44,589 nt of DNA. Source: Alphaproteobacteria bacterium (lineage in GTDB: Bacteria > Pseudomonadota > Alphaproteobacteria > JACAEB01). The stretch spans positions 1 to 44,589 of the forward strand of contig JACAEB010000116.1 in assembly GCA_013389075.1 (NCBI GenBank), read 5' to 3'. The notes below the pieces were generated by a model. That model was not told where the DNA came from. It saw only the letters and a list, made by a program, of their open reading frames with translations, and made no database searches. Positions 12,734-44,167 of this stretch are shown in pieces. The position numbers and the translations under genes were made by a program. Position 1 is the first letter of the stretch. The number at the start of each line of letters is the position of its first letter.

Positions 12734-12897
12734 CCGTCCACCCATCATGTCCCACCCGATTGTCGCAAGCTCTCGATCCGGCGGCGCATGGCGCAGCCGG
12801 TCGCAGCATCCCAGTGTCAAGGCGGAAAGATCAGATCCCCGCCACCCCGCGCCGGACCATGATCGAAAACGGTGACTAGCCCGTGACAGCCGGCGCC

Positions 12898-16661: not shown

Positions 16662-16736
16662 TGGTGCCGGGTGAGGGATTTGAACCCCCGGCCTTCGGTT
16701 TACAAAACCGCTGCACTACCGCTGTGCTAACCCGGC
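16662..16736 (-). tRNA. tRNA-Thr (anticodon UGU)
   Basis: The reverse complement reads GCCGGGT-TA-GCAC-AGCGGTA-GTGC-A-GCGGT-TTTGTAA-ACCGA-AGGCC-GGGGG-TTCAAAT-CCCTC-ACCCGGC-A-CCA. This folds as a cloverleaf with a 7-bp acceptor stem, a T-loop TTCAAAT and an encoded CCA. There is one G-A mismatch at the top of the anticodon stem. Confidence 0.9.
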
Positions 16737-18904: not shown

Positions 18905-19113
18905 AAAAACAACGGCTTGAGCGCCCATTCCGTCCACGGACGGAGACTTGCCGGAAGCTGACGGACAGATGAACTCTCTGTAAAGAAACCTATTTCGACT
19001 TCAGGCATTGTTCATGCTACGACCACCTGAACGAGAGGCCGGTCAGGCTGGCTGTCCGCAACGGGCAGGTGGGGTGCACTTCCCTGAAATCGTTCCAGAC
19101 GGGGGCTTTCTCC

Positions 19114-19857
19114 ATGAACTGCAGAAACGGCAAGCGGGCGCTCGCCTTCGGCGCGGCCTTCACCTTCATCGCCGCCATGGCGGGGGCGGACCCCGCCGAG
19201 GCCGCGACCCAGCGCTACTTCGTGGTGGACGGGACCGGCAGCACCCAGATCCAGCCGCTCACGGGCGTCGAAACGCTGGTGCAGCTCTATGGATACAACA
19301 CCGGTGTCCAGGCTTCGGCGAACACGCCCTACGACATCGAAGAGACGAACCAGAACACCCAGACCTTCTTCCTCTTCCGCTCGACGACCACCGGGGATCT
19401 CGGCCTCTTCTCGCTGGCCGGGGCGACGGTGAATGGCGGCTATGCCCAGAGCTCGGGCTCGCTCACGGGTCTGCCTCTGTCGACGACGCTCGCCGTGAAG
19501 GACGATCCGGGCGGAACGCTCGACAGCTATGTCCTGTCGGGCAGCACCTTCACCTATTCGAACCGCTCGGCGCCCAACAAGACCGACGGCTTCGCGCTGG
19601 GCGGGCTCGCGGGCCAGCTCTTCTCGATCACCTCCTCGATCGGGCCGGGCCTCAACATCGACAGCATCCGCATCGCCACCCGCCAGGGCGGCGGGGTGGG
19701 CTATTTCACGCTCTCGAACGTGCTGCCGGGCGGCAGCTTCGAGATCGTGGCCTCGCTCGTTCCCGAACCGGCGACCTGGGGCCTGATGATCGCCTCCTTC
19801 GCCCTGATCGGGGGCACGGTGAAGCGGCGCGCGCGCGCCGTGTCCGGGGCGGCCTGA
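19114..19857 (+). CDS. PEP-CTERM-type sorting-domain protein (exosortase cargo)
   Basis: Signal peptide MNCRNGKRALAFGAAFTFIAAMAGADPAEA, then a Ser/Thr/Gly-rich, Cys-free mature region. The C-terminus VPEPATWGLMIASFALIGGTVKRRARA (nt 19759-19854) has the tripartite PEP motif + TM helix + basic cluster. ATG 19114 is preferred over the upstream alternative start at 19069. Confidence 0.85.
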   Translation: MNCRNGKRALAFGAAFTFIAAMAGADPAEAATQRYFVVDGTGSTQIQPLTGVETLVQLYGYNTGVQASANTPYDIEETNQNTQTFFLFRSTTTGDLGLFSLAGATVNGGYAQSSGSLTGLPLSTTLAVKDDPGGTLDSYVLSGSTFTYSNRSAPNKTDGFALGGLAGQLFSITSSIGPGLNIDSIRIATRQGGGVGYFTLSNVLPGGSFEIVASLVPEPATWGLMIASFALIGGTVKRRARAVSGAA

Positions 19858-21207: not shown

Positions 21208-21516
21208 TGCGGTAAGATGGCCGGAGTAACAGGCGTGCCAACAGGCGGGCGGGCTTCGTTCACGGCCCGGCTCGGTTTATGCACAGGCTGTCCCGTGCCT
21301 TTTCCCCAAAGGGGGGGATCGTCGGGGGGCGGGGCCGGACGGCGAGGCAAGGGATTGTGACAGGGGTACGGGCGTCCGGAGGGGACTGCCGGTACAGATG
21401 CGGGGTCAGGCCCGCGACGCGCCGCCCGCGAGGCGGCGATGGCCTGCCGGGCGGTCCTCACCACCGGGAGGCGAAGCGTCCTGCAGGCAGGGCGCTGCGA
21501 AAGAGGGCTGAGTGTG

Positions 21517-22791
21517 ATGCGTAGTCGTGAGGACGGGAACCGCCGGACGGTCCGGGAGCTTCGCCCGAGCGGGGCGGGGAGCGTGAGCCGCATTGCCCTG
21601 TGCGTCGCGCTGGGCGCGGGACTGCTGATGCCGCAGGCAGCGGCGGGGGCGCAGCTGCGCGGCTCGATCTCCGCGAGCACGCAATATGACAGCAACCTCA
21701 CCAAGGCCGCGGACGAGGACGAGCTCGCCGCCATCTACGGCACCGACCGCCAGCTCTACGACCTCATCAGCACCATCGGCGCGGGGGCGAGCTACAGCCT
21801 TCAGTCGAGCCGCTCCGCCGTCTCGGCCAACGCCTCGATCAACTACACGAAATATCTCGAATATGACGAGTTCGACGCCGGCGGCGGCCAGGCGGGGCTG
21901 AACTGGACGCTCGACGTCACCCCGAACTGCAACACCGGCCTCAACGGCACCTATTCCCTGCGGCAGAGCAGTTTCGACGAGAACCAGGTCCGCAAGCGGA
22001 ACCTGCAGAGCCGGTACGCCGTGCGGGTGCAGGGCCGCTGCCTCATTCTCGGCCGCTTCGACACCGTCGCCTTCGCGGGCTACGACCAGGCGACCAACGA
22101 GGCGGAGATCCGGCAGAGCCAGGACCGCGAGCAGTATGTCTATGGCGGCTCGTTCGCCTATCGCACCGGGCGGGGCAATCTGTTCGGCGTGCGCGGCCAG
22201 TACCGGGAGAGCAAGTTCCTCAACCCCGACCCGCTGGCCACCCAGAGCCTGGACTTCACCGTCTCCCAGCTCACCGCCTTCACCCAGCTCGCGCTCGGCT
22301 CGACGCTGTCGCTGTCCTTCGATGCCGGCCATTCGCGCAGCGAGCGCGAGGGGGCGAGCTCGGCGAGCTCGCGGCCGTCCTATGCCGCCTCGCTCTCCTG
22401 GTCGCCGACGGCGCGGACCTCGCTCAGCTTCAGCGCCAAGCAGACCATCAGCGAGATCGAGGACCGCCTGAGCGCCGCCCGCGAGCGGCTCGATTTCGCT
22501 CTCGGCGTCAGTCATCAGCTCACGGGCCGCATGTCGGCGCGCCTGAGCGGCAACTACACGCAGGACAAGGTCCTCAACGACATTGGCGAGGTCGACCTTC
22601 TGCCCACCAATCTCACCACCGACGACGAGGAAGAATCCGTCCGCGCGTCGCTCGGCCTGTCCTATTCGCTGACGAGCCGCGTCGGCCTCACGGGCGCCCT
22701 GACCTATGCCCAGCGCATGTCCGACGTGGCGCTGCGGGAATATGAGAGCTACGGGGCCAGCCTGTCGCTCACCATCGCCCTCGGAAACTGA
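21517..22791 (+). CDS. Outer-membrane beta-barrel protein associated with PEP-CTERM/EPS loci
   Basis: Signal peptide ...RIALCVALGAGLLMPQAAAGA, then about 400 aa of alternating-polarity beta-strand sequence rich in Y/S/T/G/N/Q (ASYSLQ, GTYSLRQ, GGSFAYR, SLGLSYSLT, GASLSLTIALGN). It is the first gene of the export operon. ATG 21517 is preceded by AAGAGGG. Confidence 0.7.
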   Translation: MRSREDGNRRTVRELRPSGAGSVSRIALCVALGAGLLMPQAAAGAQLRGSISASTQYDSNLTKAADEDELAAIYGTDRQLYDLISTIGAGASYSLQSSRSAVSANASINYTKYLEYDEFDAGGGQAGLNWTLDVTPNCNTGLNGTYSLRQSSFDENQVRKRNLQSRYAVRVQGRCLILGRFDTVAFAGYDQATNEAEIRQSQDREQYVYGGSFAYRTGRGNLFGVRGQYRESKFLNPDPLATQSLDFTVSQLTAFTQLALGSTLSLSFDAGHSRSEREGASSASSRPSYAASLSWSPTARTSLSFSAKQTISEIEDRLSAARERLDFALGVSHQLTGRMSARLSGNYTQDKVLNDIGEVDLLPTNLTTDDEEESVRASLGLSYSLTSRVGLTGALTYAQRMSDVALREYESYGASLSLTIALGN

Positions 22792-22802: not shown

Positions 22803-23882
22803 TTGACGCAGCACAGCCCCAGACCTGCCGACGCCGCCCCGCCCGTCCGCCCGGGGCGTGCGCGCCTTGCGCACATGCTCGCCCTTGCGCTGGCGCTCGG
22901 TCTGGGCGCCTGTCTTCCGGATACGGACAAGTCCGCCGAGGGCGAGGCTCGCAAGGACGAGGACGGTCAGGTCGTGGCGCGGGTCGATGGCGAGGAGATC
23001 ACCATCCACCAGGTGAATTCCGAGCTGCAGCGCAGCGGCCTTCTCGGCTCCGCCGACGAGGCCGCCCGTGACGCGGCGCTTCAGGCGATCGTCCGGCGCA
23101 AGCTGCTCGCGAACGCGGCGATGGCCGAGCGCCTCGACCGCAATCCGCTCGTCGTCCACAATCTCGAGGCGGCGCGCGACGCGGTGATGGGCGAGGCCTA
23201 CATGATGCAGGAGCTCGCGGTCGTGACCGAGCCCTCGCTCACCGAGATCGACGACTTCATCGCCCGCAATCCGCTTCTGTTCACCGACCGGCGCAGCTAT
23301 GTCGTCCGGGTGATCGAGATGCCGTCGGAGGCGTATACGGACGAGTTCGTTCCGCTCTTCGACGAGACGCCCGATTTCACCGCCTTCAAGCGCGAGCTTC
23401 TGGGCGCGGGGGTCGCCTTCGACGAGGCGCGGTCGATCCGTCTGTCCTCGGATTTTCCGGAGGCTGTGCGCGAGCGTCTGGCCCAGCTCGGTGTCAACGA
23501 CAATCTCGTGCTGCGCACGCGGAGCGCGACGCAGATCCTCAAGGTCGAGGCGATCACGCCCATGCCGCTCAGCACCGAACAGGCGCGCGTGGCGGCGCGG
23601 TCGATCCTGCTCCAGGACCGTCTGCGGCGGACGGCGGGAACGCTCGACCAGGCGCTCGCCGCGAAGGCGGAGATCGCCTATTACGGCGCCTTCGACCACC
23701 TGAACCCGCAGGCGGACGAGCCGGCGCTCGAACGCATCGGCCCGCTCGATCCCGATGGGGCGGCGGCCGGCGAGCCGGGCGCCGAAGCCGGAGCCGAGGC
23801 GGAGGCGGGACCGGAGGCCGAGGCGGAGGACGCGAGTGCCGTGCCCGCCATCCGCGGCGCCGCGGCCGCCGACACCATGTGA
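22803..23882 (+). CDS. EpsD-like lipoprotein (SurA/parvulin-related, degenerate PPIase) with an acidic Glu/Ala-rich tail
   Basis: TTG 22803 has GGAG 5 nt upstream; ATG 22875 is the alternative. It has the lipobox LALGLGAC and the SurA-N/EpsD-like opening VARVDGEEITIHQVNSELQ. The C-terminus is low complexity: GAAAGEPGAEAGAEAEAGPEAEAEDA. Confidence 0.65.
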   Translation: MTQHSPRPADAAPPVRPGRARLAHMLALALALGLGACLPDTDKSAEGEARKDEDGQVVARVDGEEITIHQVNSELQRSGLLGSADEAARDAALQAIVRRKLLANAAMAERLDRNPLVVHNLEAARDAVMGEAYMMQELAVVTEPSLTEIDDFIARNPLLFTDRRSYVVRVIEMPSEAYTDEFVPLFDETPDFTAFKRELLGAGVAFDEARSIRLSSDFPEAVRERLAQLGVNDNLVLRTRSATQILKVEAITPMPLSTEQARVAARSILLQDRLRRTAGTLDQALAAKAEIAYYGAFDHLNPQADEPALERIGPLDPDGAAAGEPGAEAGAEAEAGPEAEAEDASAVPAIRGAAAADTM

Positions 23883-23961
23883 TTGGCCGGCGCGTGGCCC
23901 TTGGGGCCTGCCGGCGTGGAACGGAAGAACGCCATCCGGTGTTCGCAACTGGAGACCAGCG

Positions 23962-24819
23962 ATGACCCCGACCCGACAAAGCGACATCATGGACAAGACG
24001 CAGCGCGGCGGCCTCGGCCTGATGGCCCTGGCTCTCCTTGCCTGTCTCCTCGGCGGCCTTCCCGGCAGCGGCCGCGCCCACGCGGCGGAGGGCCCGGCCT
24101 ACCGGCTGGGCGAGGGCGATGTCGTGTCCATCAACGTGTTCCAGCGGCCCGATCTCGCCGCCAGCGCCCGCATCGGGGCGAGCGGGGAGGTGTTCGTGCC
24201 CATGGGCGGGCATGTCCGTCTCACCGGCCTCACCCTCAAGGAAGCCGAGAACCTCGTCGCCGACGCCCTCCGCAAGACCGGCGCCATGCCCCGGCCCGAG
24301 GTCGATCTCCAGGTCTCGACCTTCAACTCGCAGCTCGTGTCGGTCTTCGGCGCCGTGAACAAGCCCGGCCGCTATGTCCTCGACCGCGCGACGAGCATTT
24401 CCGAGATCCTCGCCATGGCCGGCGGGCCGGCCGGCCAGCAGGCAGGGCCCATGGCCTTCATCACCCGCATCGAGGGGGGTGAGACCAAAAGGATCGAGGT
24501 CGATCTCGACTCGATCATTGAAAGAGGCAAGCGCTCGGACGATGTCCTTGTGCAGGGCGGCGACATCGTAACGGTTTCGGAAGCACCGATCGTGTACCTC
24601 TATGGCGCGGTCAATTCGCCCGGGGCCTATACGATCGAGCCCGGAATGAGCGTGATCCAGGTGCTTTCCCTCGCGGGAGGCGTGGCGCAGGACGGGTCGG
24701 ATTCGCGACTCGACGTGCGCCGGCGCGATGGCGATGGAAAACTCGTGGAGATCAATGTAGATCTGTTTGACGCGTTGCAGGACGAGGACATCCTGATCGT
24801 TCGGAAGAGCATATTCTGA
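23962..24819 (+). CDS. Outer-membrane polysaccharide export (OPX, Wza/EpsE-like) lipoprotein, short form
   Basis: GGAG lies 7 nt upstream of ATG 23962. It has the lipobox ALLAC, the Poly_export/PES motif YRLGEGDVVSINVFQRPDL and SLBB-like repeats (GAVNKPGRY, GAVNSPGAY). At 285 aa it ends right after the second SLBB-like repeat (…VRKSIF), with no long C-terminal helix. Confidence 0.85.
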   Translation: MTPTRQSDIMDKTQRGGLGLMALALLACLLGGLPGSGRAHAAEGPAYRLGEGDVVSINVFQRPDLAASARIGASGEVFVPMGGHVRLTGLTLKEAENLVADALRKTGAMPRPEVDLQVSTFNSQLVSVFGAVNKPGRYVLDRATSISEILAMAGGPAGQQAGPMAFITRIEGGETKRIEVDLDSIIERGKRSDDVLVQGGDIVTVSEAPIVYLYGAVNSPGAYTIEPGMSVIQVLSLAGGVAQDGSDSRLDVRRRDGDGKLVEINVDLFDALQDEDILIVRKSIF

Positions 24820-24850
24820 ACGGAGTATCGCGGCTGAGGTGGGAGCCGGA

Positions 24851-26218
24851 ATGGGTATCAATCAGCTTATCGCCATTCTGTGGGCGCGGCGTCTGATCAT
24901 TGTCGGTTGTGTTATCGTCCTGGTTGCAATAACCGGCGCGATTACGTACTCCATTCCGAAGCAGTATGAGGCCACGACCAAGGTTCTGATCGACTCCAAC
25001 GAGAAGAACCCGGTCTCCGATCAGGTGGAGCAGCGGCTCCGCCTGACCGAGTTCCTGGGCCGCGAGACCGCCCTGATCACCTCCAAGCGCGTCTCCGAGC
25101 AGGTGGTCACCGATCTCAAGCTCCAGGACCGGCCCGATTTCCAGAAGGCCTATCTCAGCGCCACCAAGGGCACCCAGCCCATCGAGGACTGGATCGCCGG
25201 ACGGCTGCGTCAGCAGATCTCGGTCTGGCCGGCCGCCAAGGAGTCGGCGATCCTGATCACCGCCCGGGCCACCGATCCGGCGACAGCCGCGCGCTATGCC
25301 AATGCCTTCGCCGAGGCCTACATCACGACCAGCGTCGAGCTGCGTCAGGGCGCCGCCGAGCGCAAGTCGCAGATCCTCGACGAGCAGCAGCCCGAGCTCA
25401 GCGCCAAGCTCGCCGAGGCGCAGCGCCGGCTGCGGGCCTTCCAGGAAAAGCACGGCATCGTGGGCGCGGGTTCGCTGTCTGAGGAACAGGCGACGCTGAC
25501 GCGGCTGACCACGGATGCGGCCGACGCCGCCGCCCTCGCGCAGAACGCGACGCTCAGCGCCAAGCTGTTCCACGAGGCTCTGGATGGCGGGCGCGAGATC
25601 AATTCGCTGCCCGAGGTCCGCGCCAACCCCATCATCAGCCAGATGCGCGCCAATCTCGCGATGGAGAACGCCAATCTGGCCGACACGCGCGCGCGGTTCG
25701 GCACGAGCCACCCCAATTACACGGCCGGGCTCGCCCGCAAGCGCGCCATGGAAGACGAGATCCAGTCCGAGTTCCTGAAGATCGGCAAGGGTCTCGATCT
25801 CGCCGCCGAGAATGCGCTGCGCCAGGTCGAGGACGTCAACAAGAACCTCGAGAAGCAGAAGCAGCTCGTCGTCGCCCTGCAGGAAGTGCAGAACGAATAC
25901 GACGTCCTGTTCCGCGAGGTGCAGTCCCGCCAGGCCATCCTGTCGCGGGTCATCCAGCGCGGCGGCGAGGAGAGCCTCGACAGCCGGCTCGACAACATCA
26001 GCGCGATGATCATCTCGAAGGCCGAGGCGCCGGGCGCGCCCTCCTTCCCGGACGTCCAGCTCAATATCGCGCTCGCCACCGTGATGGGCGGCGGGCTTGG
26101 CGTGCTGGTGGCTCTCCTGTTCGAGTTCCTGAGCCGCCGCATCCTGATCGATGAAGATCTCGTCTACGCAACGGGAGCGCCGGTGCTGCTTGCACTGCCG
26201 CGAAGAACAAATGGATAG
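24851..26218 (+). CDS. Polysaccharide co-polymerase / chain-length determinant (Wzz, GumC, EpsF-like)
   Basis: N-terminal TM LIIVGCVIVLVAITGAI, then the Wzz motif YEATTKVLID, a long coiled-coil periplasmic region, and the C-terminal TM IALATVMGGGLGVLVALLFEFL. It has no kinase domain of its own. ATG 24851 is preceded by GGGAG. Confidence 0.85.
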   Translation: MGINQLIAILWARRLIIVGCVIVLVAITGAITYSIPKQYEATTKVLIDSNEKNPVSDQVEQRLRLTEFLGRETALITSKRVSEQVVTDLKLQDRPDFQKAYLSATKGTQPIEDWIAGRLRQQISVWPAAKESAILITARATDPATAARYANAFAEAYITTSVELRQGAAERKSQILDEQQPELSAKLAEAQRRLRAFQEKHGIVGAGSLSEEQATLTRLTTDAADAAALAQNATLSAKLFHEALDGGREINSLPEVRANPIISQMRANLAMENANLADTRARFGTSHPNYTAGLARKRAMEDEIQSEFLKIGKGLDLAAENALRQVEDVNKNLEKQKQLVVALQEVQNEYDVLFREVQSRQAILSRVIQRGGEESLDSRLDNISAMIISKAEAPGAPSFPDVQLNIALATVMGGGLGVLVALLFEFLSRRILIDEDLVYATGAPVLLALPRRTNG

Positions 26219-26266: not shown

Positions 26267-27184
26267 ATGAACCGACCGACCCTAAGACCCGACATGTCGG
26301 CGCACGAGCCGCCCGCCCATACGGAGCGGCTGGGCGAGATCCTCGTGCGCATGGGGGCGCTCGCTCCCGCTGACGTCGATCGGGTGGTGCAGGTTCAGGC
26401 CAAGACCGGCGGCTCGTTCGGCCATGTGGCCGTGCGCCAGTCCCTGGTGACCGCGGACCAGGTGCGCGCCGCGCTCGCCCATCAGTTCGGCTATATGAGC
26501 GCCGACGGCATCGACGTGCCGCAGGGCATGTCGCGCGAGCTCATCATGCTGTTCGACACGATGGGCCGCAGCGCGGAGCGCATCCGCATCCTGCGCTCGC
26601 ATCTGATGATCCACCATTTCCAGAACGGCGAGCGCATGCTGGCCGTCACCGGCATCGGCGACAATTCCGGGTCGACCTATATCGCGGCCAATCTCGCCAC
26701 CTCGATCGCGCAGCTCGGCCGGCGCGTCCTGCTCATCGATGCGAACCTGCGCGCCCCGCGGATGCGTCAGCTCTTCGGGATCGACAATCCGCTCGGCCTC
26801 TCGGACGTGCTCGCCGGACGGGCCTCCGTCGACAATGTGATCATGTCCAACCTCATCGAGAACCTCGCCATCCTGCCGGCGGGCACCATTCCGCCCAACC
26901 CGCAGGAACTTCTCGGATCGCCGCGGTTCCAGGAGATGATGGCCCAGTTCAAGAGCGTGTTCGGCGTGATCATCATCGACACCTGCGGCGATGAAGGCAT
27001 CGCGGACGCCGAGCAGGTCTGGAACGAGGCCCGCAGCGTGCTGCTCGTCGCGCGGCGCGGCCGCTCGCGGTACAATCACGCGCGGCGGATGGCCGACGGG
27101 ATCCGCGCCATGGGCGCGACGGTTGTCGGTACCGTGATGAACGGGTACGCGGGACCGGCACCCAAGCGCCGCCGGGCCTTCTGA
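26267..27184 (+). CDS. EpsG/BY-kinase-like ParA-fold ATPase homologue with a degenerate Walker A and an N-terminal MshEN/T2SSE_N-like domain
   Basis: The C-terminal two-thirds align with BY-kinase modules (VLLIDANLR, VIIIDTCG, LAILPAGTIPPNPQELL). The Walker A position reads GIGDNSGST, with no Lys. The N-terminus carries RLGEILVRMGALAPADVDRVVQVQ-AKTGG-SFGHVAVRQSLVTADQVRAALAHQ. Confidence 0.75.
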   Translation: MNRPTLRPDMSAHEPPAHTERLGEILVRMGALAPADVDRVVQVQAKTGGSFGHVAVRQSLVTADQVRAALAHQFGYMSADGIDVPQGMSRELIMLFDTMGRSAERIRILRSHLMIHHFQNGERMLAVTGIGDNSGSTYIAANLATSIAQLGRRVLLIDANLRAPRMRQLFGIDNPLGLSDVLAGRASVDNVIMSNLIENLAILPAGTIPPNPQELLGSPRFQEMMAQFKSVFGVIIIDTCGDEGIADAEQVWNEARSVLLVARRGRSRYNHARRMADGIRAMGATVVGTVMNGYAGPAPKRRRAF

Positions 27185-27221: not shown

Positions 27222-28130
27222 TTGGCGGTCACGGCACAGCACCAGCATGGCCATGGCGAGGCACGCGGCGCGATCGCGCCGCTTCTGCCCGGGCTCGCCG
27301 CGCTCGCCCCGGTGCTCCTGTGCCTGTCTCTCCTCTACGGGCTGACGATCCTCGACCTTGCCCGCGAGGTCTGGCCAGACCCCCAGCAGGGGCACGGCCC
27401 CTTCATCCTTGCCATCGCCCTCGGGGCCGCCGCCGCCCGCATCCGCCTCTTTCTCGGCATCGAGGGGAGCGCGCCGGTCGCGGGCACGGCGGTACTGCTT
27501 CTCGGGCTCGCGGCCTATGCGCTCGGCCGCTCGCAGGAGATCCTCCTCTTCGAGACCGCGTCGATCCTGCCCGTCATCGCGGGGTCGGTTCTCATCCTCA
27601 AGGGCTGGCCCGGGTTGAGGCTTCTCTGGTTTCCCGTGGTCTTTCTCGGCTTCTGGATCGTCTGGCCGGGCTGGCTCATCGACGGCGTCACCCAGCCGCT
27701 GAAGATCCTCCTCTCGGACGCGACGGTCGAGCTCCTCTACCGGCTCGGCTTTCCGGTCGGGCACAGCGGGGTCGCGATCACAATCGGCGCCTATCAGGTG
27801 CTGATCGCCGATGCCTGTTCGGGGCTCAATTCGCTCCTCACACTGACGGCGGTGGGGGTCCTCTATCTCTACATCTGCAAATACCGGTCGCTGACGCGCA
27901 ATCTCGTGATCCTCGCAGCGCTCGTGCCCATCGCCATCTTCGCCAACTGGCTGCGCGTCATCGCGCTCACCCTGATCACCTATGCCTTCGGCGCGGAGGC
28001 GGGCGAGGGCTTCGTGCATGATTTCACCGGCCTCTTCCTCTTCTCGACCGCCCTTCTCGGCGTGCTCGCGCTCGATGGTCTGATCGGGCTCGGCGGGGTG
28101 TTCTCGCGCGCGCGGCGGGCCGGGCCATGA
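27222..28130 (+). CDS. Exosortase (EpsH/Xrt family transpeptidase)
   Basis: 302-aa polytopic membrane protein with the catalytic-Cys motif LIADACSGLNSL and the conserved Arg motif FANWLRVIAL. The only available start in the frame is TTG 27222, and there is no internal Met. The stop overlaps the EpsI start (ATGA at 28127-28130). Confidence 0.85.
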   Translation: MAVTAQHQHGHGEARGAIAPLLPGLAALAPVLLCLSLLYGLTILDLAREVWPDPQQGHGPFILAIALGAAAARIRLFLGIEGSAPVAGTAVLLLGLAAYALGRSQEILLFETASILPVIAGSVLILKGWPGLRLLWFPVVFLGFWIVWPGWLIDGVTQPLKILLSDATVELLYRLGFPVGHSGVAITIGAYQVLIADACSGLNSLLTLTAVGVLYLYICKYRSLTRNLVILAALVPIAIFANWLRVIALTLITYAFGAEAGEGFVHDFTGLFLFSTALLGVLALDGLIGLGGVFSRARRAGP

Positions 28131-28855
28131 GGGTGGACGGAACGCTCCTCCTGCGGGCCGGCGCCATCGCCCTTCTGATGCTGGGCGCGCTCGGCGCCAC
28201 GGCCGCGATCACGCCGCAGTCGCGGGCGCTGTCGGCCGACAGGGTCGCAGCTCTCGGCGAGATGCTGCCCATGGCGTTCGGCGACTGGCGGCAGGCCGAG
28301 GACCTGACGGTGGTGCTGCCCGACCCCCGTGTCCAGCGCATGGTCGAGACCCTCTATACCGAGACGGTCGCGCGGACCTACGAGAATGCCGAGGGGCGGC
28401 AGATCATGCTCGTCCTCGCCTATGGCGAGGACCAGTCCGCCCAGCTTCAGCTCCACCGCCCCGAGACCTGCTACCGGGCGCAAGGCTTCACCGTGCGCGA
28501 GACCGGGCGGCCGGCGCTGGCCATCGGCGGGGGCGTCCTGCCGGTCAAGCAGCTCCTCACCGAGCGGCCCCTGCGCCGGGAGCCCGTCACCTACTGGATG
28601 CGGGTCGGCGGGAGCGTCGTGACGGGGGTGGCCGACCGTCAGTGGGCGAAGCTGTCGGCGGGCCTGTCGGGCACCGTGCCGGACGGCATACTGGTGCGCG
28701 TCTCCAGCCTGTCGAGCGATGCCGATCAGGCATTCGCCCTGCAGGCGGACTTCATCCGGGAGCTCCTTCTCGCGCTCGATCCGGCCGGACGCCGCCTTCT
28801 TCTGGGGACGCAGGCCGAGCGCGTGGAGCCGCCGACACGGGCGGTCGAGGGATAG
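28127..28855 (+). CDS. EpsI-family exosortase-associated protein
   Basis: N-terminal anchor LLLRAGAIALLMLGALGATAA and the family signature LQLHRPETCYRAQGF. It is translationally coupled to the exosortase. Confidence 0.8.
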   Translation: MRVDGTLLLRAGAIALLMLGALGATAAITPQSRALSADRVAALGEMLPMAFGDWRQAEDLTVVLPDPRVQRMVETLYTETVARTYENAEGRQIMLVLAYGEDQSAQLQLHRPETCYRAQGFTVRETGRPALAIGGGVLPVKQLLTERPLRREPVTYWMRVGGSVVTGVADRQWAKLSAGLSGTVPDGILVRVSSLSSDADQAFALQADFIRELLLALDPAGRRLLLGTQAERVEPPTRAVEG

Positions 28856-29129
28856 GCAGGGGCCCCGTGACCATGTCGCATGAGGGGACGGGGACGGCGC
28901 ACGGGCGCGTAAGGGAGCCTTCACCCGGCCGTGCCAAAGTGGAACCTCGCCCCGGCCGGCGGCTTGCCATCACGGGGACCGGGCAGCCGGGGCACACAGA
29001 ATCGTGGCATTGGCCCCGGAGCGTCCCGCCTCGGGCCCTGCCGGAAGGGCCTTTGGCCGGGGTGGCACGGGCAGGACGGTCTGCGCCCTGGGGCGGGGGC
29101 GGTGCGTGAGACAGGAAGGGTCCGAACCG

Positions 29130-30581
29130 GTGAGTGAGGGCAAGGGTCTCGGGGCTGCCGGAGTGCCGGCGGCCGATCAGGGAGCCGCTTCCGGCGTGGA
29201 GGCGGCCCTGCCGGCTGCGGTCGAGCGCTTTCTCGAGCGGATCCCGCCCGGGGCGCGCGGCCTCAAGCGCCTGCTTCGGCGCGGCGTGCGGCTCGGCCTC
29301 TCCCATCGGGCACTCTTGGAGAAGGCCGCGCTGGCCCTGGGGCTCAGGGGGCTTGCGGCGGTCTCCTCGCTTCTCCTCAACATCATGCTCGGCCGCGCCC
29401 TCGGGCCGGCGGGCCTCGGCCTCTATTTCCTCGCCACCACCATCGCCCGCATGCTCGGCCTGGTCGGCACCTGGGGGGGCGAGCAGTCGAGCACCCGCCT
29501 CGTCGCCCGCGCGCGGGCGCGGGGGCGCCATGACGAGGCGCGCGGCGCGGCACAGACGGCGATGATCATCTGCGGCGCCGGATCGACCGTCATGGCGGTG
29601 CTGCTCTATCTCCTCGCCGGACCGATCGCCGTCGGCATCTTCAACAATCCCGATCTCGTGCCGGTGCTGAAGGCGGTGGCGCCGCTGATCGTGCTGCACG
29701 GCTTCACCCTCGTCATCGGCGGGCTCTTCGTCGCGGTCGAACGGGCCGGGCTCGCCGTGTTCATCAACGCGCTCGGCGCCCCGCTCGCGGGCGTGATCAT
29801 CTATGGCTTCCTCGTCGGCGAGCGCACGCTCGGAACCGCCATCCAGTCCGTGCTGATCTCGACCGCCCTGACGGGGCTCGCGGGGCTCGCCCTCTGGGCC
29901 GTGATCGCGCGCAAGGCGCTCGGGAGCGGGCAGGCGCCGATCGATTTCGGCCCGGCCTTCAAGAGCGGCGTCCATCTCGTCCTCGTGACCCTGGTCGCGC
30001 GGGCGCAGGAATGGATGACGGTGATCCTCCTCGGCATTCTCGCAACGGCCACCGAGCTCGCCCAGTTCTCGCTTCCCAACCGCATCACCGGGCTGATGAT
30101 GATCATTCTGATCGCCGTCAACATGACGGTGCGCGGCCGCTATGCCTCGCTCCACGCCACGGGCGACACGGCCGGGCTCGAGCGGCTCGCGCGGGTGGTG
30201 AACGGGCTCACCATGGTGCTGGCGGCGGGGCCGACGCTCGTCCTTCTGGCCTTCCCGGGCTTCATCATGGGCCTCTTCGGCGACGGGTTCGTCAGTGCCG
30301 CTCCCATTCTCCAGCTCCTCGCGGTGACGCAGTGGTTCGCGGTCTCCATGGGATCGGTCGGCCAGCTGCTCCTGATGGGCGGGCTCGAGCGCGTCGCCAT
30401 GCGCATCTCGGTCGGCTGCGCCCTCCTGCTGCTGGTCGCGCTCCTCATCGCCATTCCGGTCTGGGGCGCCATCGGCGCGGCCGTGGCGGCGGCGCTGACG
30501 ACGGTAATCCAGCGGATCTGGACGACCATGGCCGTGCGACGGCACATGGGCATCCGGCTCGGGGTCACGGCATTCTTCTGA
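29130..30581 (+). CDS. Wzx-like oligosaccharide flippase (polysaccharide biosynthesis / MOP superfamily)
   Basis: It has a multi-TM hydrophobic profile throughout, starting with LALGLRGLAAVSSLLLNIMLGRALGPAGLGLYFLA. The start is uncertain: the ORF opens at ATG 29004, and GTG 29130 was chosen because the first about 40 codons are Gly/Arg/Pro-rich and unlike real protein. There is no in-frame ATG before the first TM helix. Confidence 0.75.
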   Translation: MSEGKGLGAAGVPAADQGAASGVEAALPAAVERFLERIPPGARGLKRLLRRGVRLGLSHRALLEKAALALGLRGLAAVSSLLLNIMLGRALGPAGLGLYFLATTIARMLGLVGTWGGEQSSTRLVARARARGRHDEARGAAQTAMIICGAGSTVMAVLLYLLAGPIAVGIFNNPDLVPVLKAVAPLIVLHGFTLVIGGLFVAVERAGLAVFINALGAPLAGVIIYGFLVGERTLGTAIQSVLISTALTGLAGLALWAVIARKALGSGQAPIDFGPAFKSGVHLVLVTLVARAQEWMTVILLGILATATELAQFSLPNRITGLMMIILIAVNMTVRGRYASLHATGDTAGLERLARVVNGLTMVLAAGPTLVLLAFPGFIMGLFGDGFVSAAPILQLLAVTQWFAVSMGSVGQLLLMGGLERVAMRISVGCALLLLVALLIAIPVWGAIGAAVAAALTTVIQRIWTTMAVRRHMGIRLGVTAFF

Positions 30582-30602: not shown

Positions 30603-31511
30603 TCAGGCGGCGTAGGCCGGATCGACCTCGAAGCCAAGGGCCCGGACGGCTTCGATGTCCCGCGCCGCGAAGGCCTCGGGGGGAGCCGCGCGATAACGCC
30701 CCATCGAGCCCGGTTCGCGCGGCAGCCCCGCGAGGCGGTCGCGCTCCTGCGGGGGCAGGGAGAGGCCCGCAAAGGCGAGGATCTCGTCGACGGCGGCGCG
30801 TGGATCGGCGACGAGCGTCTCGAAGCGCAGCACGAGATGCCGGCCCGGTAGGGCGCGGGCCGAGAAATCCAGCGTGCGCTGATTGGAACGGACCCAGTAG
30901 GCGAGGCTGCGGCGCGGGGCATCCTCCGCCCCCGTCCCGTCTATGCCGAAGAGCGGCCCCCAATTGTAGAGCTGCTGCTGGTTGCCGCTCAGCGCCATGT
31001 CGAGCCCGTGCCGCATGACGTGGATGTAGCGCAGGCCCGGAAAGGCGCGCGCGAGCTGCGGCAGGAAGATGTGGGCGTTCGGCTCCTTGAAGCCCCAGCC
31101 GAGCCGGTCGTCGGGCAGCGTGAAGGGCAGGAGGCCCTTGCCGAGGCGAAGATAGGGCCAGAGGCCCTTGCCCGACCCGTTGGGGGCATGCCCCGTCCGC
31201 GCCATCGCCGCCGCCTTGCCGAGCAGGAAGGCAAGATCGCTCCCCGAGCGCGCGGCGGGACCGAAGAGGCCGGCCTTCAGCAGGCGGAGTTCCGTCTCGA
31301 GCGCGGGAAGCTCCGCCTCCGGAGGAAGCGGTCCCGTCCCGAGCAGGCCGCGCTGCTTGAAGAGGAGCGTGAACCAGAGATTGTCGAGCGGGCCGTTGAG
31401 GTCCCGCCCGATATAGAGCCCGGCCTCGGTCAGGATCTGGGCGACGACGCGCGTTCCCGATCCGCCGCCGCCACCGACCACGAGGGGAGGGGTGTCCGCG
31501 ACGGGCGTCAT
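30603..31511 (-). CDS. Sulfotransferase-family protein
   Basis: This is the C-terminal part of the 836-aa track ORF. The real start is ATG 31511 (MTPVADTPP), overlapping the upstream gene's stop (ATGA). It has the PAPS-loop-like VVGGGGGSGTRVVAQIL and the 3'-PB-like YIHVMRHGLDMALS. Confidence 0.75.
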   Translation of the reverse strand: MTPVADTPPLVVGGGGGSGTRVVAQILTEAGLYIGRDLNGPLDNLWFTLLFKQRGLLGTGPLPPEAELPALETELRLLKAGLFGPAARSGSDLAFLLGKAAAMARTGHAPNGSGKGLWPYLRLGKGLLPFTLPDDRLGWGFKEPNAHIFLPQLARAFPGLRYIHVMRHGLDMALSGNQQQLYNWGPLFGIDGTGAEDAPRRSLAYWVRSNQRTLDFSARALPGRHLVLRFETLVADPRAAVDEILAFAGLSLPPQERDRLAGLPREPGSMGRYRAAPPEAFAARDIEAVRALGFEVDPAYAA

Positions 31512-33067
31512 GACCGCGGCCCCGATCCGTGCGGCAGGAGACCCCGCCGGTCGAGGTCGAGCGCCACGAGCGCGGTGCCGCAGACCATGAAGAAGATCGG
31601 AAAGTTCGCGTCGATCGACAGCACGAGCTTGACGATCGCAAAGCCCATGATCGCGCAGGCGAGCGCGAGCAGGAGGTGACCCTCCGGCCCGTCGCGCGAA
31701 TAGGATCGCAGGAAGAGCTGATACATGAGCAGGCCGAACAGCGTCACCATGGCGATGAGGCCGGGAATGCCGGTATCGAGCACGATGTTGATGTAGTAGC
31801 AGTCGACCGTCAGGTTCTTGAAGGTGCGGTAGCCGAGCACCTGCAGCGCATTGCCCGCGCCGTATCCCACGACCGGGCTCGCCGCGATGCGGGGGATGGC
31901 CTGCTTCCACTGGTCGATCCGGTGCTGGCTCGAGGCGGCCGTCGACGCGGTGTCGCCCTTGGCGATCTTGGCCGTCGCGGCGAGGATGGCCGGCCCCCCC
32001 ATGGCGAGCCCCCCGGCGATGAACAGGGCGACGAGAACCCGGTAGCGCGAGAACGGGTTGAAGCGCTGGAAGCGCACGAGGCCGAGGCCGATGAACAGCG
32101 CGATCTCGAACAGGAAGGCCACCTGCGCGCTGCGCGAGTCGGCCGCCAGCACGGCCATCACGCAGGTCACGACGATCCCGAAATAGATGACCTGCATCAG
32201 GAAGTTGCGCGCCGTGATCAGGCGGTAGAGCACGAAGGGCACGCACAGCGCCACGAACTCGGCCATGGCGAGCGGATGGCTGAACGGCCCCTGGACCCGG
32301 TACTCGCCGGCGCGGAAGCGGCTCTCCTGGGCGATCATCGTCCATTCGGAGGAGATGGTCAGGAAGGCCGGCCAGTAGCGGACATAGGGGTTTTCCTGCT
32401 GCACCGCCTCGATGTTGGCGAGCACGGAGAGAAGTGTGACCGAGGCCACCAGCGCGGAGATGACCATCTCGATCCGCGCCCGCGAATTGATCACCACGCA
32501 GGCGATGATGACCGGCAGGAACCAGAAGAGGATCCGCTGCACCAGCTCGTAGGTGGTGATGTTCATGTTGTAGGCGAGCGGCGTCGAGGCGAGGAAGCAG
32601 ACGAGGAGGACGCCCAGCGTTACGAAGACCGGCTTGTTGTTCCCCACGATGGAGCTGAGCTCCCGGCGCAGCACCATGGAGGTCGCGAGCTGCCAGATCG
32701 TCATCACGAGGATGGCGTAGAACAGCACCTTGGGAAGGCTCAGGACCGGCATGCCCGGAACGTCGATCCCGCCATATTGCGGCCAGAGCGACCAGACGAA
32801 GACCATGAAGGCGAGAAGGCCGAAGGTGATGGCGCGCGTGTGGCTGCGGTTCTGGGCGGGCACGGCGAGCAGCACGGCGAGCCCGAAGGGCGCGAGCACC
32901 ACGATCGCCATCAGCGGGTTGAAGGTCAGGACGAAATAGCTGAGGAACAGCATGGCGAGCACGGCGCAGAGCACGAGCGCCACCACCCCCCAGGGGCTCG
33001 GCCCCCGGAAGGAGTGGTAGGTGGGGGGTGTCGGATAGACCCTGCCCCTCGTCGCCTCGTTCGCCAT
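31508..33067 (-). CDS. O-antigen ligase/polymerase-like (Wzy_C-type) polytopic membrane protein
   Basis: 519 aa with at least 10 hydrophobic helices and a large loop late in the protein (…TAKIAKGDTASTAASSQHRIDQWKQAIPRIAASPVVGYGAGN), as in O-antigen ligase/Wzy-family proteins found in exosortase loci. Confidence 0.7.
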   Translation of the reverse strand: MANEATRGRVYPTPPTYHSFRGPSPWGVVALVLCAVLAMLFLSYFVLTFNPLMAIVVLAPFGLAVLLAVPAQNRSHTRAITFGLLAFMVFVWSLWPQYGGIDVPGMPVLSLPKVLFYAILVMTIWQLATSMVLRRELSSIVGNNKPVFVTLGVLLVCFLASTPLAYNMNITTYELVQRILFWFLPVIIACVVINSRARIEMVISALVASVTLLSVLANIEAVQQENPYVRYWPAFLTISSEWTMIAQESRFRAGEYRVQGPFSHPLAMAEFVALCVPFVLYRLITARNFLMQVIYFGIVVTCVMAVLAADSRSAQVAFLFEIALFIGLGLVRFQRFNPFSRYRVLVALFIAGGLAMGGPAILAATAKIAKGDTASTAASSQHRIDQWKQAIPRIAASPVVGYGAGNALQVLGYRTFKNLTVDCYYINIVLDTGIPGLIAMVTLFGLLMYQLFLRSYSRDGPEGHLLLALACAIMGFAIVKLVLSIDANFPIFFMVCGTALVALDLDRRGLLPHGSGPRS

Positions 33068-34479: not shown

Positions 34480-35793
34480 CTACCAGTTGATCCCGTCATA
34501 GCGGTCTCCGAGGCCGTCCGTGCCCGGAATGCGCACGAGGTCGACGAGCCGCTGATCGGCCCGCATCAGCCCCGGCACCCCGGCGAAGGCGGGGTCGTTG
34601 TTGCCGATCACGACGATCTCGCCATGGGCCACGGTGGCGGCGAGGTCCTCGCTCATCAGCTCGGCGATGTGCGGGATGACGCGCAGGATGTAGTCCTGAT
34701 TGGCGCCCGTGAGCCGCGCGAGGTGGACGTTGCGGTCATAGAGGCGCAGCTCGCAGCCCTTGCCGATCAGCCGCTCGATCACCTCCACCTGCGGGCTCTC
34801 GCGCAGATCGTCCGTCCCCGCCTTGAAGGAGAAGCCGAGGAAGGCGATCTTGCGCCTGCCGGTGGCGAGAATGCGCTCGACGCAGCGGTCGATCTGTTCG
34901 CGGTTCGAGGGCAGGACGGAGTCCAGCACCGGAAGGGCGAGGTCGAGCGAGCGCCCCATATAGGTCAGTGCCCGGAGGTCCTTGGGCAGGCAGGAGCCGC
35001 CAAAGGCGAAGCCCGGCATCAGGTAGGTGCGGGAGATGTTGAGCTTGGTGTCCTGGCAGAAGATCTCCATCACCTCGTGGCTGTCGATGGAGAGCGCCTT
35101 GGCGATGTTGCCGATCTCGTTGCCGAAGGCGACCTTGAGGGCGTGCCAGGCATTGTCCGCATACTTCACGAGCTCGGCCGTCTCAACCGAGGTGACGAAG
35201 AGCGGTGCATCGAGCATGGCGTAAAGCTCGGCCACCGCCTTGCCGGTTTCGGGATGGAGCGAGCCGATCACCGTCTTGGGCGGATTGTAGAAATCCTTGA
35301 CCGCCGTAGACTCGCGCAGGAATTCCGGATTGTTCGCGACGCCGAAATCGGTGCCGGCGGCAAGCCCGCTCGCGGCTTCGAGCGCGGGGATGACGAGGCC
35401 GCGCATGGTGCCGGGCAGGATGGTCGAGCGGATGACGACCGTATGCCGCGAGGACTTGCCCGCGATGGCCCGGCCGATCTCGCCGCACACGGCCTCGACC
35501 GCGCGCGTGTCGAGGCTGCCGTTCCGGCGGCTCGGCGTGCCCACGCAGACGAGCGAGATGTCGGTGGCGGCGATGGCGGCGGTGCTGTCGGTGGTGGCGC
35601 GGATGGCGCCGCGCCCGACGGCGTCCTCGATGATCTCGGGAACGCCGGGCTCGATGATCGGCGCCTGGCCGCGATTGATCAGGTCGACCTTGACGGGGCT
35701 CACATCGACGCCGACGACCTCATGGCCCTCCCTGGCGAGGCAGGCGGCCGTGACGGCTCCGACATAGCCGAGCCCGAAAACGCTGATCTTCAT
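34480..35793 (-). CDS. algD: GDP-mannose 6-dehydrogenase-like nucleotide-sugar dehydrogenase (AlgD family)
   Basis: 437 aa. MKISVFGLGYVGAVTAACLAREGHEVVGVDVSPVKVDLINRGQAPIIEPG, NPEFLRESTAVKD, GFAFGGSCLPKDLRALTY, SFKAGTDDLRESP and the C-terminal ...GINW run collinear, as I recall it, with Pseudomonas AlgD (MRISIFGLGYVGAV... ending GICW). They fit AlgD better than Ugd-type UDP-glucose dehydrogenases. Confidence 0.8.
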   Translation of the reverse strand: MKISVFGLGYVGAVTAACLAREGHEVVGVDVSPVKVDLINRGQAPIIEPGVPEIIEDAVGRGAIRATTDSTAAIAATDISLVCVGTPSRRNGSLDTRAVEAVCGEIGRAIAGKSSRHTVVIRSTILPGTMRGLVIPALEAASGLAAGTDFGVANNPEFLRESTAVKDFYNPPKTVIGSLHPETGKAVAELYAMLDAPLFVTSVETAELVKYADNAWHALKVAFGNEIGNIAKALSIDSHEVMEIFCQDTKLNISRTYLMPGFAFGGSCLPKDLRALTYMGRSLDLALPVLDSVLPSNREQIDRCVERILATGRRKIAFLGFSFKAGTDDLRESPQVEVIERLIGKGCELRLYDRNVHLARLTGANQDYILRVIPHIAELMSEDLAATVAHGEIVVIGNNDPAFAGVPGLMRADQRLVDLVRIPGTDGLGDRYDGINW

Positions 35794-44082: not shown

Positions 44083-44167
44083 GGAGGAGTGCCCGAGTGG
44101 TTAAAGGGGACGGACTGTAAATCCGTTGGCTCAGCCTACGTTGGTTCGAATCCAACCTCCTCCACCA
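44083..44167 (+). tRNA. tRNA-Tyr (anticodon GUA)
   Basis: GGAGGAG-TG-CCCG-AGTGGTTAAA-GGGG-A-CGGAC-TGTAAAT-CCGTT-(long variable arm GGCTCAGCCTACG)-TTGGT...TCGAATCCAAC-CTCCTCC-A-CCA. The 7-bp acceptor stem, long extra arm and encoded CCA are all present. Confidence 0.9.

Follow-up and report, generated by a model that had tools for sequence, protein, structure and literature searches.

Capsule and exopolysaccharide (EPS) pathways of the Wzx/Wzy type are thought to be tuned post-translationally through cycles of tyrosine phosphorylation on Wzc, and control by cyclic di-GMP (c-di-GMP) is, to our knowledge, a textbook feature of synthase-dependent polymers only. The locus described here raises the question of whether a protein resembling the kinase part of Wzc might answer to c-di-GMP rather than act as an autokinase. 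This protein belongs to the EpsG family and is encoded in a 44,589-nucleotide stretch of DNA from an alphaproteobacterium (contig JACAEB010000116.1 of assembly GCA_013389075.1), which is called the window from here on. The reading favoured below, to which we assign a probability of roughly 0.55, is that EpsG is the pseudokinase half of a split, Wzc-like polysaccharide co-polymerase (PCP), gated by c-di-GMP through an N-terminal MshEN_N module and docked on its membrane partner EpsF.

The starting point was an original prediction, made from the sequence alone, of a tyrosine-kinase homologue in which a c-di-GMP-binding type of motif precedes a kinase domain with altered catalytic residues. The translation of the gene proved identical to the one quoted there, and each motif residue listed was found at its position (coordinates of all features are collected in Table 1). 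A Shine-Dalgarno sequence, AAAGG, precedes the ATG at 26267 by 7 nt, and gene callers place the start at Met10 (26294; protein P0001, 296 aa); the motif is retained from either start. The open reading frame (ORF) is coding-like, with a G+C content at third codon positions (GC3) of 0.89 in a window of 69% G+C. Its score against the NCBIfam EpsG model TIGR03029 (238 bits, E 1e-70) lies below the equivalog cutoff of 313.8, although residues 21-292 cover model positions 4-273 of 274, and by this profile the protein falls within the EpsG family as a divergent representative and not as an equivalog. The TIGR01007 profile, which describes bacterial tyrosine kinases (BY-kinases) of the Wzc/CapB type, is matched at 128.1 bits, above its cutoff of 108.05. 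The full-length AlphaFold2 (AF2) model has a predicted local distance difference test score (pLDDT) of 90.2 and a predicted template modelling score (pTM) of 0.82. A search of PDB sequences divides the protein in two, residues 6-98 being similar to the GSPII domains of PilF and residues ~100-293 to CapB, Wzc, Etk, BceF and VpsO.

In the N-terminal part, a spacer of 5 residues lies between two motifs of 24 residues each, an arrangement that had been likened to the MshEN domain, and the likeness held in profile, sequence and structure searches. The NCBIfam model NF053729 ('cyclic di-GMP-binding domain-containing protein, MshE-related') covers residues 21-73 completely (model positions 1-53 of 53) at 42.6 bits, with a cutoff of 38 and E 3.9e-11. 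When residues 14-100 were compared with all PDB sequences by phmmer, Thermus thermophilus PilF was matched at E 1.5e-14, with all three of its GSPII repeats aligned and GSPII-C best, and in the same search the c-di-GMP-bound GSPII-B entries and Vibrio cholerae MshE (5HTL) were matched in register. In the AF2 model, helices 22-28, 34-47, 51-57 and 63-73 form two short-long hairpins, the four-helix fold of MshEN_N, and a separate model of residues 14-100 reaches a pLDDT of ~91 across the motif. A Foldseek search of the PDB with this latter model places GSPII/MshEN domains, most of them with ligand, at all of the top 16 ranks, and unrelated folds appear at E>2 only; the superposition on 5HTL_B, a c-di-GMP-bound MshE, has a root-mean-square deviation (rmsd) of 0.8 Å over 56 columns (prob 1.0), and the values for c-di-GMP-bound MshE and PilF-GSPII-B span 0.8-1.3 Å. 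Weak NfrB and PRK15489 matches fall on the same residues as the motif. The tandem motif is real and beyond chance. After Gln73, a 27-residue linker, in which F74 is conserved and an ELxxxxxP segment is nearly invariant among relatives, leads straight into the kinase-like domain, with no MshEN_C (T2SSE_N1) subdomain between the two.

Whether this module binds c-di-GMP can be judged from the residues that matter in characterized receptors. The 5-residue linker is a defining feature of MshEN, and the contacts with c-di-GMP are mainly hydrophobic; in V. cholerae MshE (VcMshE), G11L and G40I abolish binding, and substitutions of Arg9, Asp12 and Gln32 shift the affinity by no more than ~5-fold (Wang et al., 2016; PMC5013675). 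In the same study, MshEN_N alone (VcMshE 1-65) was found to bind with a KD of 0.35 µM, and the MshEN_N-only protein Bd2402 was also a binder. Position 1 of the motif tolerates R, K and L, and GSPII-C, in which one of the motifs starts with Pro, binds at ~460 nM (Neissner et al., 2024; PMC11731258). In EpsG, the VcMshE residues R9, L10, G11, G18, L25, L29 and Q32 of motif I correspond to R21, L22, G23, G30, V37, V41 and Q44, and R38, L39, G40, G47, L54, L58 and Q61 of motif II to S50, F51, G52, S59, V66, L70 and Q73. The position-3 Gly is present in both motifs (G23, G52) and invariant in 51 family sequences, as is Q73. Positions 2, 17, 21 and 24 hold L22/V37/V41/Q44 and F51/V66/L70/Q73, where the changes from Leu to Val or Phe are conservative, and position 1 is R21 in motif I and S50 in motif II, the residues tolerated there in the literature being R, K, L and P. 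Every residue shown to be essential for binding in VcMshE is present in EpsG and the hydrophobic cluster is complete; judged from these residues, binding of c-di-GMP by the MshEN_N module of EpsG is probable.

The rest of the protein has the ParA-like fold of BY-kinases, again as anticipated. Residues ~100-293 match the catalytic-domain sequences of BY-kinases in the PDB at E 1e-29 to 1e-19 (Staphylococcus aureus CapB at E 1.4e-29; also Escherichia coli Wzc and Etk, Burkholderia cenocepacia BceF and V. cholerae VpsO). In Foldseek searches with the full-length model, Wzc, Etk, CapB, BceF and VpsO are matched at E 1e-16 to 1e-13 (Wzc 3la6 at E 2e-16), and the superposition on BY-kinase chains gives an rmsd of ~1.5-2 Å across ~200 residues, several chains being at ~1.5 Å. 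The EX2RX2R helix, the ring-interface and oligomerisation motif of BY-kinases, is retained, E104, R107 and R110 being invariant in 51 sequences. The catalytic motifs differ in the three respects named by the original prediction, namely the Walker A Lys, the second Asp of Walker A' and the C-terminal Tyr cluster, all of which are lost. S136 is aligned with K55 of CapB (GAGKST) and with the Met of the Wzc K540M construct (SIGMTF); the D-A-N of Walker A' (158-160) is aligned with the D-G-D of CapB (LVIDGDMR), with D158 and R162 invariant; and one Tyr is left in the tail. In Walker B, the invariant D238 and the Thr are kept, and the PP of DTPP has become CG. The loss of the Lys argues against catalysis and not necessarily against nucleotide binding. 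Taken together, a P-loop with neither Lys nor Arg, a D-x-N motif and a tail devoid of a Tyr cluster point to a pseudokinase scaffold and not to an autokinase, and we infer that the kinase-like domain of EpsG is a pseudokinase with the BY-kinase fold and ring-interface motif.

These departures are not peculiar to the window protein and turn out to be traits of the whole family. An exhaustive search for relatives at E<=1e-30 gave 522 clusters (50% identity). Two samples were studied, 199 non-identical close relatives and 150 representatives at 50% identity, 148 of which bear MshEN (together ~350 relatives), as well as 80 loci from named genomes (L001-L080), whose EpsG relatives are at most 42% identical and do not include the closest clade, P0002-P0008. 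The presence of the motif in the representatives was judged by coverage of the hidden Markov model, family position 11 being Lys or Arg. The nearest relative, P0002, is ~78-81% identical to window EpsG, and the next clade, P0003-P0008, is ~50% identical and has one member labelled Alphaproteobacteria with the NCBI name 'tyrosine autokinase'. The locus of the closest clade is of the XrtV type, its genes being arranged in the order seen in the window; the main EpsG family is 35-44% identical and comes mostly from Betaproteobacteria. The N-terminal module is widespread among these proteins, since 147 of the 150 top matches begin at query residue 22 or earlier and NF053729 is matched in 50 of 51 sampled family members. 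In clade P0002-P0008, position 1 is occupied by Arg in motif I and by Ser in motif II, opposite to the main family. The gene order EpsE-EpsF-EpsG is conserved in 66-73 of the 80 loci, and in about half of these loci XrtB/EpsI is missing within 8 kb downstream (e.g., in Ramlibacter and Polaromonas; L007, L009, L014, L019, L021), so the link between the MshEN-bearing EpsG module and exosortase systems is not a strict one.

Across the ~350 relatives, the Walker A Lys position is Arg in ~50%, non-basic in ~40% and Lys in 3-13%. The 199 close relatives have R in 109, K in 6 and a non-basic residue in 84 (A30, V18, S16 and C11, among others), and the 148 diverse members that bear MshEN have R in 73, K in 18 and a non-basic residue in 57. 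Lys is present in 20 of the 150 representatives, including two top matches without MshEN, P0254 and P0269 (842-863 aa), which retain GK[ST]. A co-variation between loss of this Lys and presence of the N-terminal motif, which had been envisaged, is only partial, given the 18 MshEN-bearing members that keep Lys. The universal trait is the lack of a Tyr cluster, none being found in any of the ~350 relatives, with a maximum of 2 Tyr within the last 25-30 residues. Position 160 is either N or D and co-varies with the basic residue of the P-loop, loss of the latter going with the change from D-x-D to D-x-N (89/26/5/79; Fisher 7e-26, not corrected for phylogeny), and loss of the Walker B Thr is confined to the non-basic class. 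Three grades of P-loop can be told apart at window residues 136, 160 and 239: K or R, each with D-x-D and DT, and non-basic, in which D-x-N is found and the Walker B Thr is often lost. The window protein is in the fully degenerate grade, as are all members from the Methylophilaceae, the group of the founding EpsG, which have neither the Walker A Lys nor a Tyr cluster.

On a rough neighbour-joining tree, built without the columns that hold the P-loop and Walker states, the three-state P-loop character changes at least 26 times, versus ~60 when shuffled; the P-loop state is clade-structured yet repeatedly altered, with large clades in which the degenerate state has been stably retained. When the window protein is compared with P0002, no functional segment is less conserved than the P-loop (50% identical, with differences at 5 of 10 positions), and the MshEN motifs are 83-92%, the EX2RX2R helix 94% and PPNPxELL 100% identical. 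This pattern fits relaxed constraint on catalysis and maintained constraint on the putative sensor module and the interaction surfaces. It also bears on the view that EpsG is nothing but a decaying, non-functional BY-kinase remnant, with motifs that degenerated through lost selection. Several degenerate catalytic motifs and a score below the TIGR03029 equivalog cutoff agree with such decay, which is scarcely credible for an intact 305-aa ORF with high GC3 and a good Shine-Dalgarno sequence, a pLDDT of 90, strong conservation of EX2RX2R, PPNPxELL and the Gly and Gln of MshEN, conserved synteny, 522 clusters of relatives, and the same degenerate state stably passed on across large clades.

The favoured reading also needs a membrane partner. 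The kinase-less, Wzz-like protein expected upstream of EpsG is EpsF (TIGR03017), which is collinear with Wzc residues 29-461, while EpsG residues 89-298 are collinear with Wzc 493-702; EpsF and EpsG together therefore correspond to a Wzc that has been split, the MshEN_N module falling where the two halves part. The cytoplasmic tail of EpsF is aligned with the Wzc segment that directly follows its second transmembrane segment, TM2 (FLRRGIESPEQL), and EpsF proteins across the 80 loci share the conserved tail motif RRxRSx[ED]DLx3LxhPVL[GA]. By analogy with the tail of CapA, we take this tail to be a candidate docking strand for EpsG. Many EpsF proteins of the family have long Arg/Pro-rich C-terminal extensions past this conserved tail. 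Natural EpsF-MshEN-kinase-like fusions exist in P0126 (749 aa) and P0145 (790 aa), the EpsF-like halves of which match window EpsF at E 1e-55 and E 3e-46, respectively. They resemble full-length Wzc with the c-di-GMP motif placed between TM2 and the kinase-like domain, and provide Rosetta-stone support for physical coupling of EpsF and EpsG. P0131 (525 aa) is a further natural EpsF-MshEN_N-kinase-like fusion, and P0145 retains GK[ST]. The conserved tail and the fusions lend the presumed docking indirect support, and the conserved EpsE-EpsF-EpsG gene order likewise speaks for coupling.

From these elements a mechanism can be proposed, in which EpsF would be the membrane half and EpsG the cytoplasmic half of a split Wzc-like PCP. 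The surfaces by which rings assemble and partners dock are retained in EpsG, namely the EX2RX2R helix, the loop PPNPxELL and the Asp residues of the core. EpsG would dock on EpsF at its conserved cytoplasmic tail and would oligomerise via the EX2RX2R surface, as Wzc and CapB do. The 53-residue MshEN_N lies where the juxtamembrane linker of Wzc meets the kinase domain, and is predicted to bind one c-di-GMP; from there, ~30 residues before the EX2RX2R helix, c-di-GMP could shift the oligomerisation of EpsG or its coupling to EpsF. The presumed outcome would be post-translational gating of Wzy-dependent polymerisation and of EpsE-mediated export, with c-di-GMP occupancy taking the switch role that cycles of phosphorylation and dephosphorylation have in canonical Wzc.

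A number of points weigh against this proposal. Motif II is off-consensus at 3 of 11 key positions, with Ser for Arg at position 1 (S50), Ala at position 6 (A55) and Ser for Gly at position 10 (S59), and may be compared with motif II of the non-binder PilF GSPII-A, which has only 45% consensus at the key positions (Neissner et al., 2024; PMC11731258). The Pfam profile T2SSE_N (PF05157), put forward in the original prediction as a check, has no match on EpsG even at E<=10, which is consistent with only the MshEN_N half of the domain being present, as in the MshEN_N-only class of Wang et al. (2016; PMC5013675); since the NCBIfam model, the PDB sequence search and the fold search agree, we do not regard the missing match as refuting the motif. 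EpsG is not among the proteins in the isothermal titration calorimetry table of the same study, and neither a report of c-di-GMP binding by any EpsG nor an experimental study of the MshEN_N plus BY-kinase-like architecture was found in the literature searched. In the window, an Rfam scan for a c-di-GMP riboswitch returned three tRNAs only, and no GGDEF, EAL or PilZ genes were found among the scanned ORFs; neither a GGDEF/EAL gene nor a riboswitch thus ties the locus to c-di-GMP independently. We purely infer the step from c-di-GMP to oligomerisation. On the catalytic side, EpsG retains D158, D238, G135 and T137, the structures of Wzc K540M contain ADP (from PDB titles and alignment), and a 2016 paper refers to EpsG proteins as autophosphorylating kinases, a second-hand statement for which Ayabe-Chujo et al. 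(2012) are cited.

The points on the ligand side would suit a module that has kept the MshEN_N/GSPII fold and no longer binds c-di-GMP, in which case it would serve as a structural or protein-interaction domain and EpsG as a non-sensing pseudokinase scaffold for EpsF. Models for such a module are the N-termini of XpsE/GspE, PilF GSPII-A and the PilZ-binding N-terminus of PilB; GSPII-A and the GspE/XpsE of Xanthomonas campestris pv. campestris have the fold without binding (PMC5013675, PMC11731258). The Ser/Ala/Ser at positions 1/6/10 of motif II and the missing T2SSE_N match agree with this view, the structural neighbours of the module include the PilB-PilZ complex 7lkm, GSPII-A 9g1w and XpsE 2d28, and 26 of the 199 close relatives have neither Arg nor Lys at position 1 of either motif. 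We nevertheless consider it unlikely, because the position-3 Gly of both motifs, the hydrophobic cluster and the terminal Gln are present and (nearly) invariant, the best structural matches are ligand-bound binders, and the MshEN motifs are conserved within the window clade at least as well as the protein average.

The points on the catalytic side would suit an active, nucleotide-dependent ATPase or kinase with a non-canonical P-loop, modulated by MshEN_N and acting on a Tyr outside the tail, on EpsF or on another substrate such as the UDP-glucose dehydrogenase (Ugd) of the locus. D158, R162, D238, G135 and the hydroxyl of T137 are in place, and the binding of ADP by Wzc K540M means that a Lys-less P-loop is no proof of a nucleotide-free protein. 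D-x-D is accompanied by Arg at the Walker A position in about half of the family and by Lys there in 3-13%, so the ancestral state or a sister state may bind or hydrolyse ATP. In E. coli and Bacillus subtilis, BY-kinases act on Ugd enzymes, and a Ugd gene is part of the locus. An active enzyme is nonetheless improbable, more so than a non-binding module, for a P-loop with neither Lys nor Arg in which 5 of 10 positions differ from those of the ~78%-identical P0002, and with the Mg-coordinating Asp exchanged for Asn; Wzc, CapB and Etk lose their kinase activity when the Lys is mutated to Met or Ala. The Tyr cluster is lacking family-wide, and a cognate phosphatase signature was absent from 81 loci: neither the window nor any of the 80 loci (~16 kb each) has the C.GN.CRS signature of low-molecular-weight protein tyrosine phosphatases (Wzb), and no Pfam phosphatase was found among the window genes; PHP-type enzymes may be encoded elsewhere in the genome.

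The gene context is that of a Wzx/Wzy-type, exosortase-linked EPS locus, as had been predicted, on the evidence of the flippase (PF01943/PF01554), the polymerase (PF04932) and the XrtB/XrtV-like exosortase gene. EpsG directly follows EpsF in a cluster with the order EpsL-EpsD-EpsE-EpsF-EpsG-exosortase-EpsI. All features are listed in Table 1.

Table 1. Features of EpsG, its partner EpsF and the surrounding genes in the window (res, residues; TM, transmembrane segments; GT, glycosyltransferase).
Feature	Coordinates	Strand	Remarks
EpsG-family gene	26267..27184	+	305 aa; MshEN_N module and BY-kinase-like predicted pseudokinase domain
MshEN motif I RLGEILVRMGALAPADVDRVVQVQ	26327..26398	+	res 21-44; NF053729 model positions 1-24
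Spacer AKTGG	26399..26413	+	res 45-49, 5 residues
MshEN motif II SFGHVAVRQSLVTADQVRAALAHQ	26414..26485	+	res 50-73; NF053729 positions 30-53
Linker from MshEN_N to kinase-like domain	26486..26566	+	res 74-100; AF2 pLDDT 72-78
EX2RX2R helix (BY-kinase ring-interface/oligomerisation motif)	26567..26614	+	E104, R107, R110; AF2 helix 101-116
Degenerate P-loop GIGDNSGSTY	26651..26680	+	res 129-138; S136 at the Walker A Lys position
Walker A' VLLIDANLR	26726..26752	+	res 154-162; D158 and R162 retained; N160 replaces the second Asp
Walker B VIIIDTCG	26966..26989	+	res 234-241; compared with CapB IIIVDTPP
C-terminal tail GYAGPAPKRRRAF	27143..27181	+	res 293-305; basic, single Tyr, no Tyr cluster
EpsF, Wzz/PCP-type membrane partner	24839..26218	+	459 aa, two TM, no kinase domain; TIGR03017, E 5e-81
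EpsF cytoplasmic juxtamembrane tail SRRILIDEDLVYATGAPVLLALPRRTNG	26132..26215	+	res 432-459, 28 residues; candidate EpsG docking strand
EpsL outer-membrane protein	21439..22791	+	TIGR03014, E 3e-39
EpsD-family peptidyl-prolyl isomerase	22803..23882	+	TIGR02925, 113.6 bits, cutoff 108.9
EpsE, Wza-like outer-membrane polysaccharide export protein	23755..24819	+	TIGR03028, E 3e-66, match from residue 116
Exosortase, XrtB/XrtV-like	27222..28130	+	TIGR03113 XrtB 265 bits (cutoff 275); XrtV 254 bits
EpsI, exosortase-associated, B-type	28127..28855	+	NF045609, 247.7 bits, cutoff 220
Wzx-type flippase (Polysacc_synt/MatE)	29004..30581	+	PF01943, PF01554
Wzy-like polymerase (Wzy_C)	31508..33067	-	PF04932, E 2.6e-13
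UDP-glucose dehydrogenase (Ugd)	34480-35793		in EPS locus
PEPxxWA-CTERM protein, candidate exosortase substrate	19069..19857	+	262 aa; NF035944 37.7 bits, cutoff 35, res 231-254
Sulfotransfer_3 enzyme	18023-18904	+	
MBOAT acyltransferase	37110-38624	-	
ORF adjoining the MBOAT gene	36013-37101	-	362 aa, no family match
GT2	16788-17834		
tRNA	16665-16736	-	
tRNA	44083-44164	+	
tRNA	44284-44354	+	
Methionyl-tRNA synthetase	38840-40588		
GT2, HlyD-type and RND genes	1795-8701	+	GT2 (Glyco_trans_2_3, synthase-like) of 776 aa; then membrane-fusion protein; then permease of 1038 aa
TonB-dependent receptor	10535-13519	-	994 aa; Plug from residue 314

The longest EpsE ORF overlaps that of EpsD by 128 nt, and with the profile match beginning only at residue 116, the start of EpsE probably lies downstream of 23882. 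The gene for the PEPxxWA-CTERM protein precedes that of the exosortase by 7 kb, and the protein matches no other family. Other genes of the EPS locus encode GT2 and GT4 glycosyltransferases, a sulfotransferase and an MBOAT protein, and the Sulfotransfer_3 and MBOAT genes suggest an exopolysaccharide that is sulfated and O-acylated. At the left end the EPS locus is adjoined by a tRNA gene, located before the GT2 gene, which may mark an island boundary, and at the right end is the methionyl-tRNA synthetase gene. Farther from the locus, the unusual trio of directly successive GT2, HlyD-type and RND genes might represent a second system of polymer synthesis and export. Its GT2, of NfrB size (1795-4125), was considered as a second MshEN protein and set aside, having no MshEN or PilZ match. 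The TonB-dependent receptor has an N-terminal extension of ~300 residues without a family match.

With respect to the literature, the architecture is not new. Mfla_2024, the EpsG of Methylobacillus, is described in the supplement of the 2016 study as having MshEN_N only, joined to an ATPase of non-T2SSE type, and is aligned there among the predicted binders (Wang et al., 2016; PMC5013675). The NCBIfam model TIGR03029 likewise already spans the N-terminal module. With the architecture on record since 2016 and its odd features shared family-wide, the window EpsG is a divergent member of a known, experimentally uncharacterized architecture, and in itself a modest result; the original prediction of an uncharacterized architecture is borne out for experimental work, of which none was found, and not for its novelty. 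A 2016 paper and a 2025 preprint treat EpsG as a Wzc-like autokinase acting via its phosphorylation state, and c-di-GMP enters a 2025 review of chain-length control solely in connection with synthase-dependent systems. What goes beyond the literature searched is the family-wide evidence that the 'EpsG tyrosine kinases' are predicted to be mostly pseudokinases, and the apparently graded erosion of the P-loop (K, R, non-basic) coupled to that of the Walker A' Asp.

The family comprises ~520 clusters at 50% identity and is widespread in floc- and biofilm-forming Betaproteobacteria, with Nitrosomonas, Methylophilaceae, Massilia, Ramlibacter, Polaromonas and Rubrivivax among the taxa that bear EpsG. 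Databases label these proteins 'tyrosine autokinase', whereas their sequences predict that most members cannot be canonical autokinases and show a genuine MshEN_N module in them. If c-di-GMP binding is true, an annotation would be corrected family-wide, a PCP component would join the list of c-di-GMP effectors, and the K, R and degenerate P-loops would offer a series for studying the passage from a kinase to a ligand-gated scaffold. It is conceivable, and we put it forward tentatively as something rather doubtful, that throughout the family c-di-GMP binding has replaced the Tyr phospho-cycle as the switch of a Wzc-like ring. EpsG would then be the first second-messenger-gated PCP/BY-kinase component in a Wzx/Wzy pathway, the kinase would have become a pseudokinase stepwise, from Lys via Arg to a non-basic residue and with the Mg-binding Asp lost alongside, and the window protein would be the fully degenerate end-state in a lineage outside the Betaproteobacteria.

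Among the known systems, the closest is Methylobacillus EpsG, which has the same order of MshEN_N and a BY-kinase-like ATPase fold and the same EpsE-EpsF-EpsG-exosortase-EpsI neighbourhood; the window protein differs from it in being only ~35-42% identical, in having DTCG rather than DTPP in Walker B, and in its membership of a small clade, P0002-P0008, whose locus is of the XrtV type. With the canonical BY-kinases and PCP-2 proteins (Wzc, Etk, CapA/CapB, BceF, VpsO) EpsG shares the catalytic fold, EX2RX2R, the Asp and Arg of Walker A' and the Asp of Walker B. The split arrangement, with a transmembrane adaptor and its juxtamembrane tail, is that of CapA/CapB, and an adjacent Wza-like exporter is found in canonical systems as well. 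Unlike these kinases, EpsG has no Walker A Lys, D-x-N in place of D-x-D and no C-terminal Tyr cluster, and its locus differs from theirs in the lack of a nearby Wzb/PHP phosphatase and in the extra N-terminal MshEN_N on EpsG.

A second group of relatives is formed by the MshEN/GSPII receptors (VcMshE 5HTL, PilF GSPII-B and GSPII-C, Bd2402, PA3740, NfrB), with which EpsG has in common the 24+5+24 motif, the four-helix fold, the position-3 Gly, the terminal Gln and the hydrophobic cluster; E. coli NfrB is also alike in that its MshEN_N module is joined to a polysaccharide-biosynthesis protein. EpsG departs from these receptors in having no MshEN_C, in the Ser residues at positions 1 and 10 of motif II, and in its output domain, which is a degenerate BY-kinase fold and not an ATPase of type II secretion or type IV pili, a glycosyltransferase or a receiver. 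Finally, the incorporation of a c-di-GMP receptor into the machinery of secretion or polymerisation is known from the PilZ domains of BcsA and Alg44, from PelD, PgaCD, BgsA and NfrB. All these systems are synthase-dependent, whereas in EpsG the predicted receptor would be located on the PCP/BY-kinase component of a Wzx/Wzy pathway.

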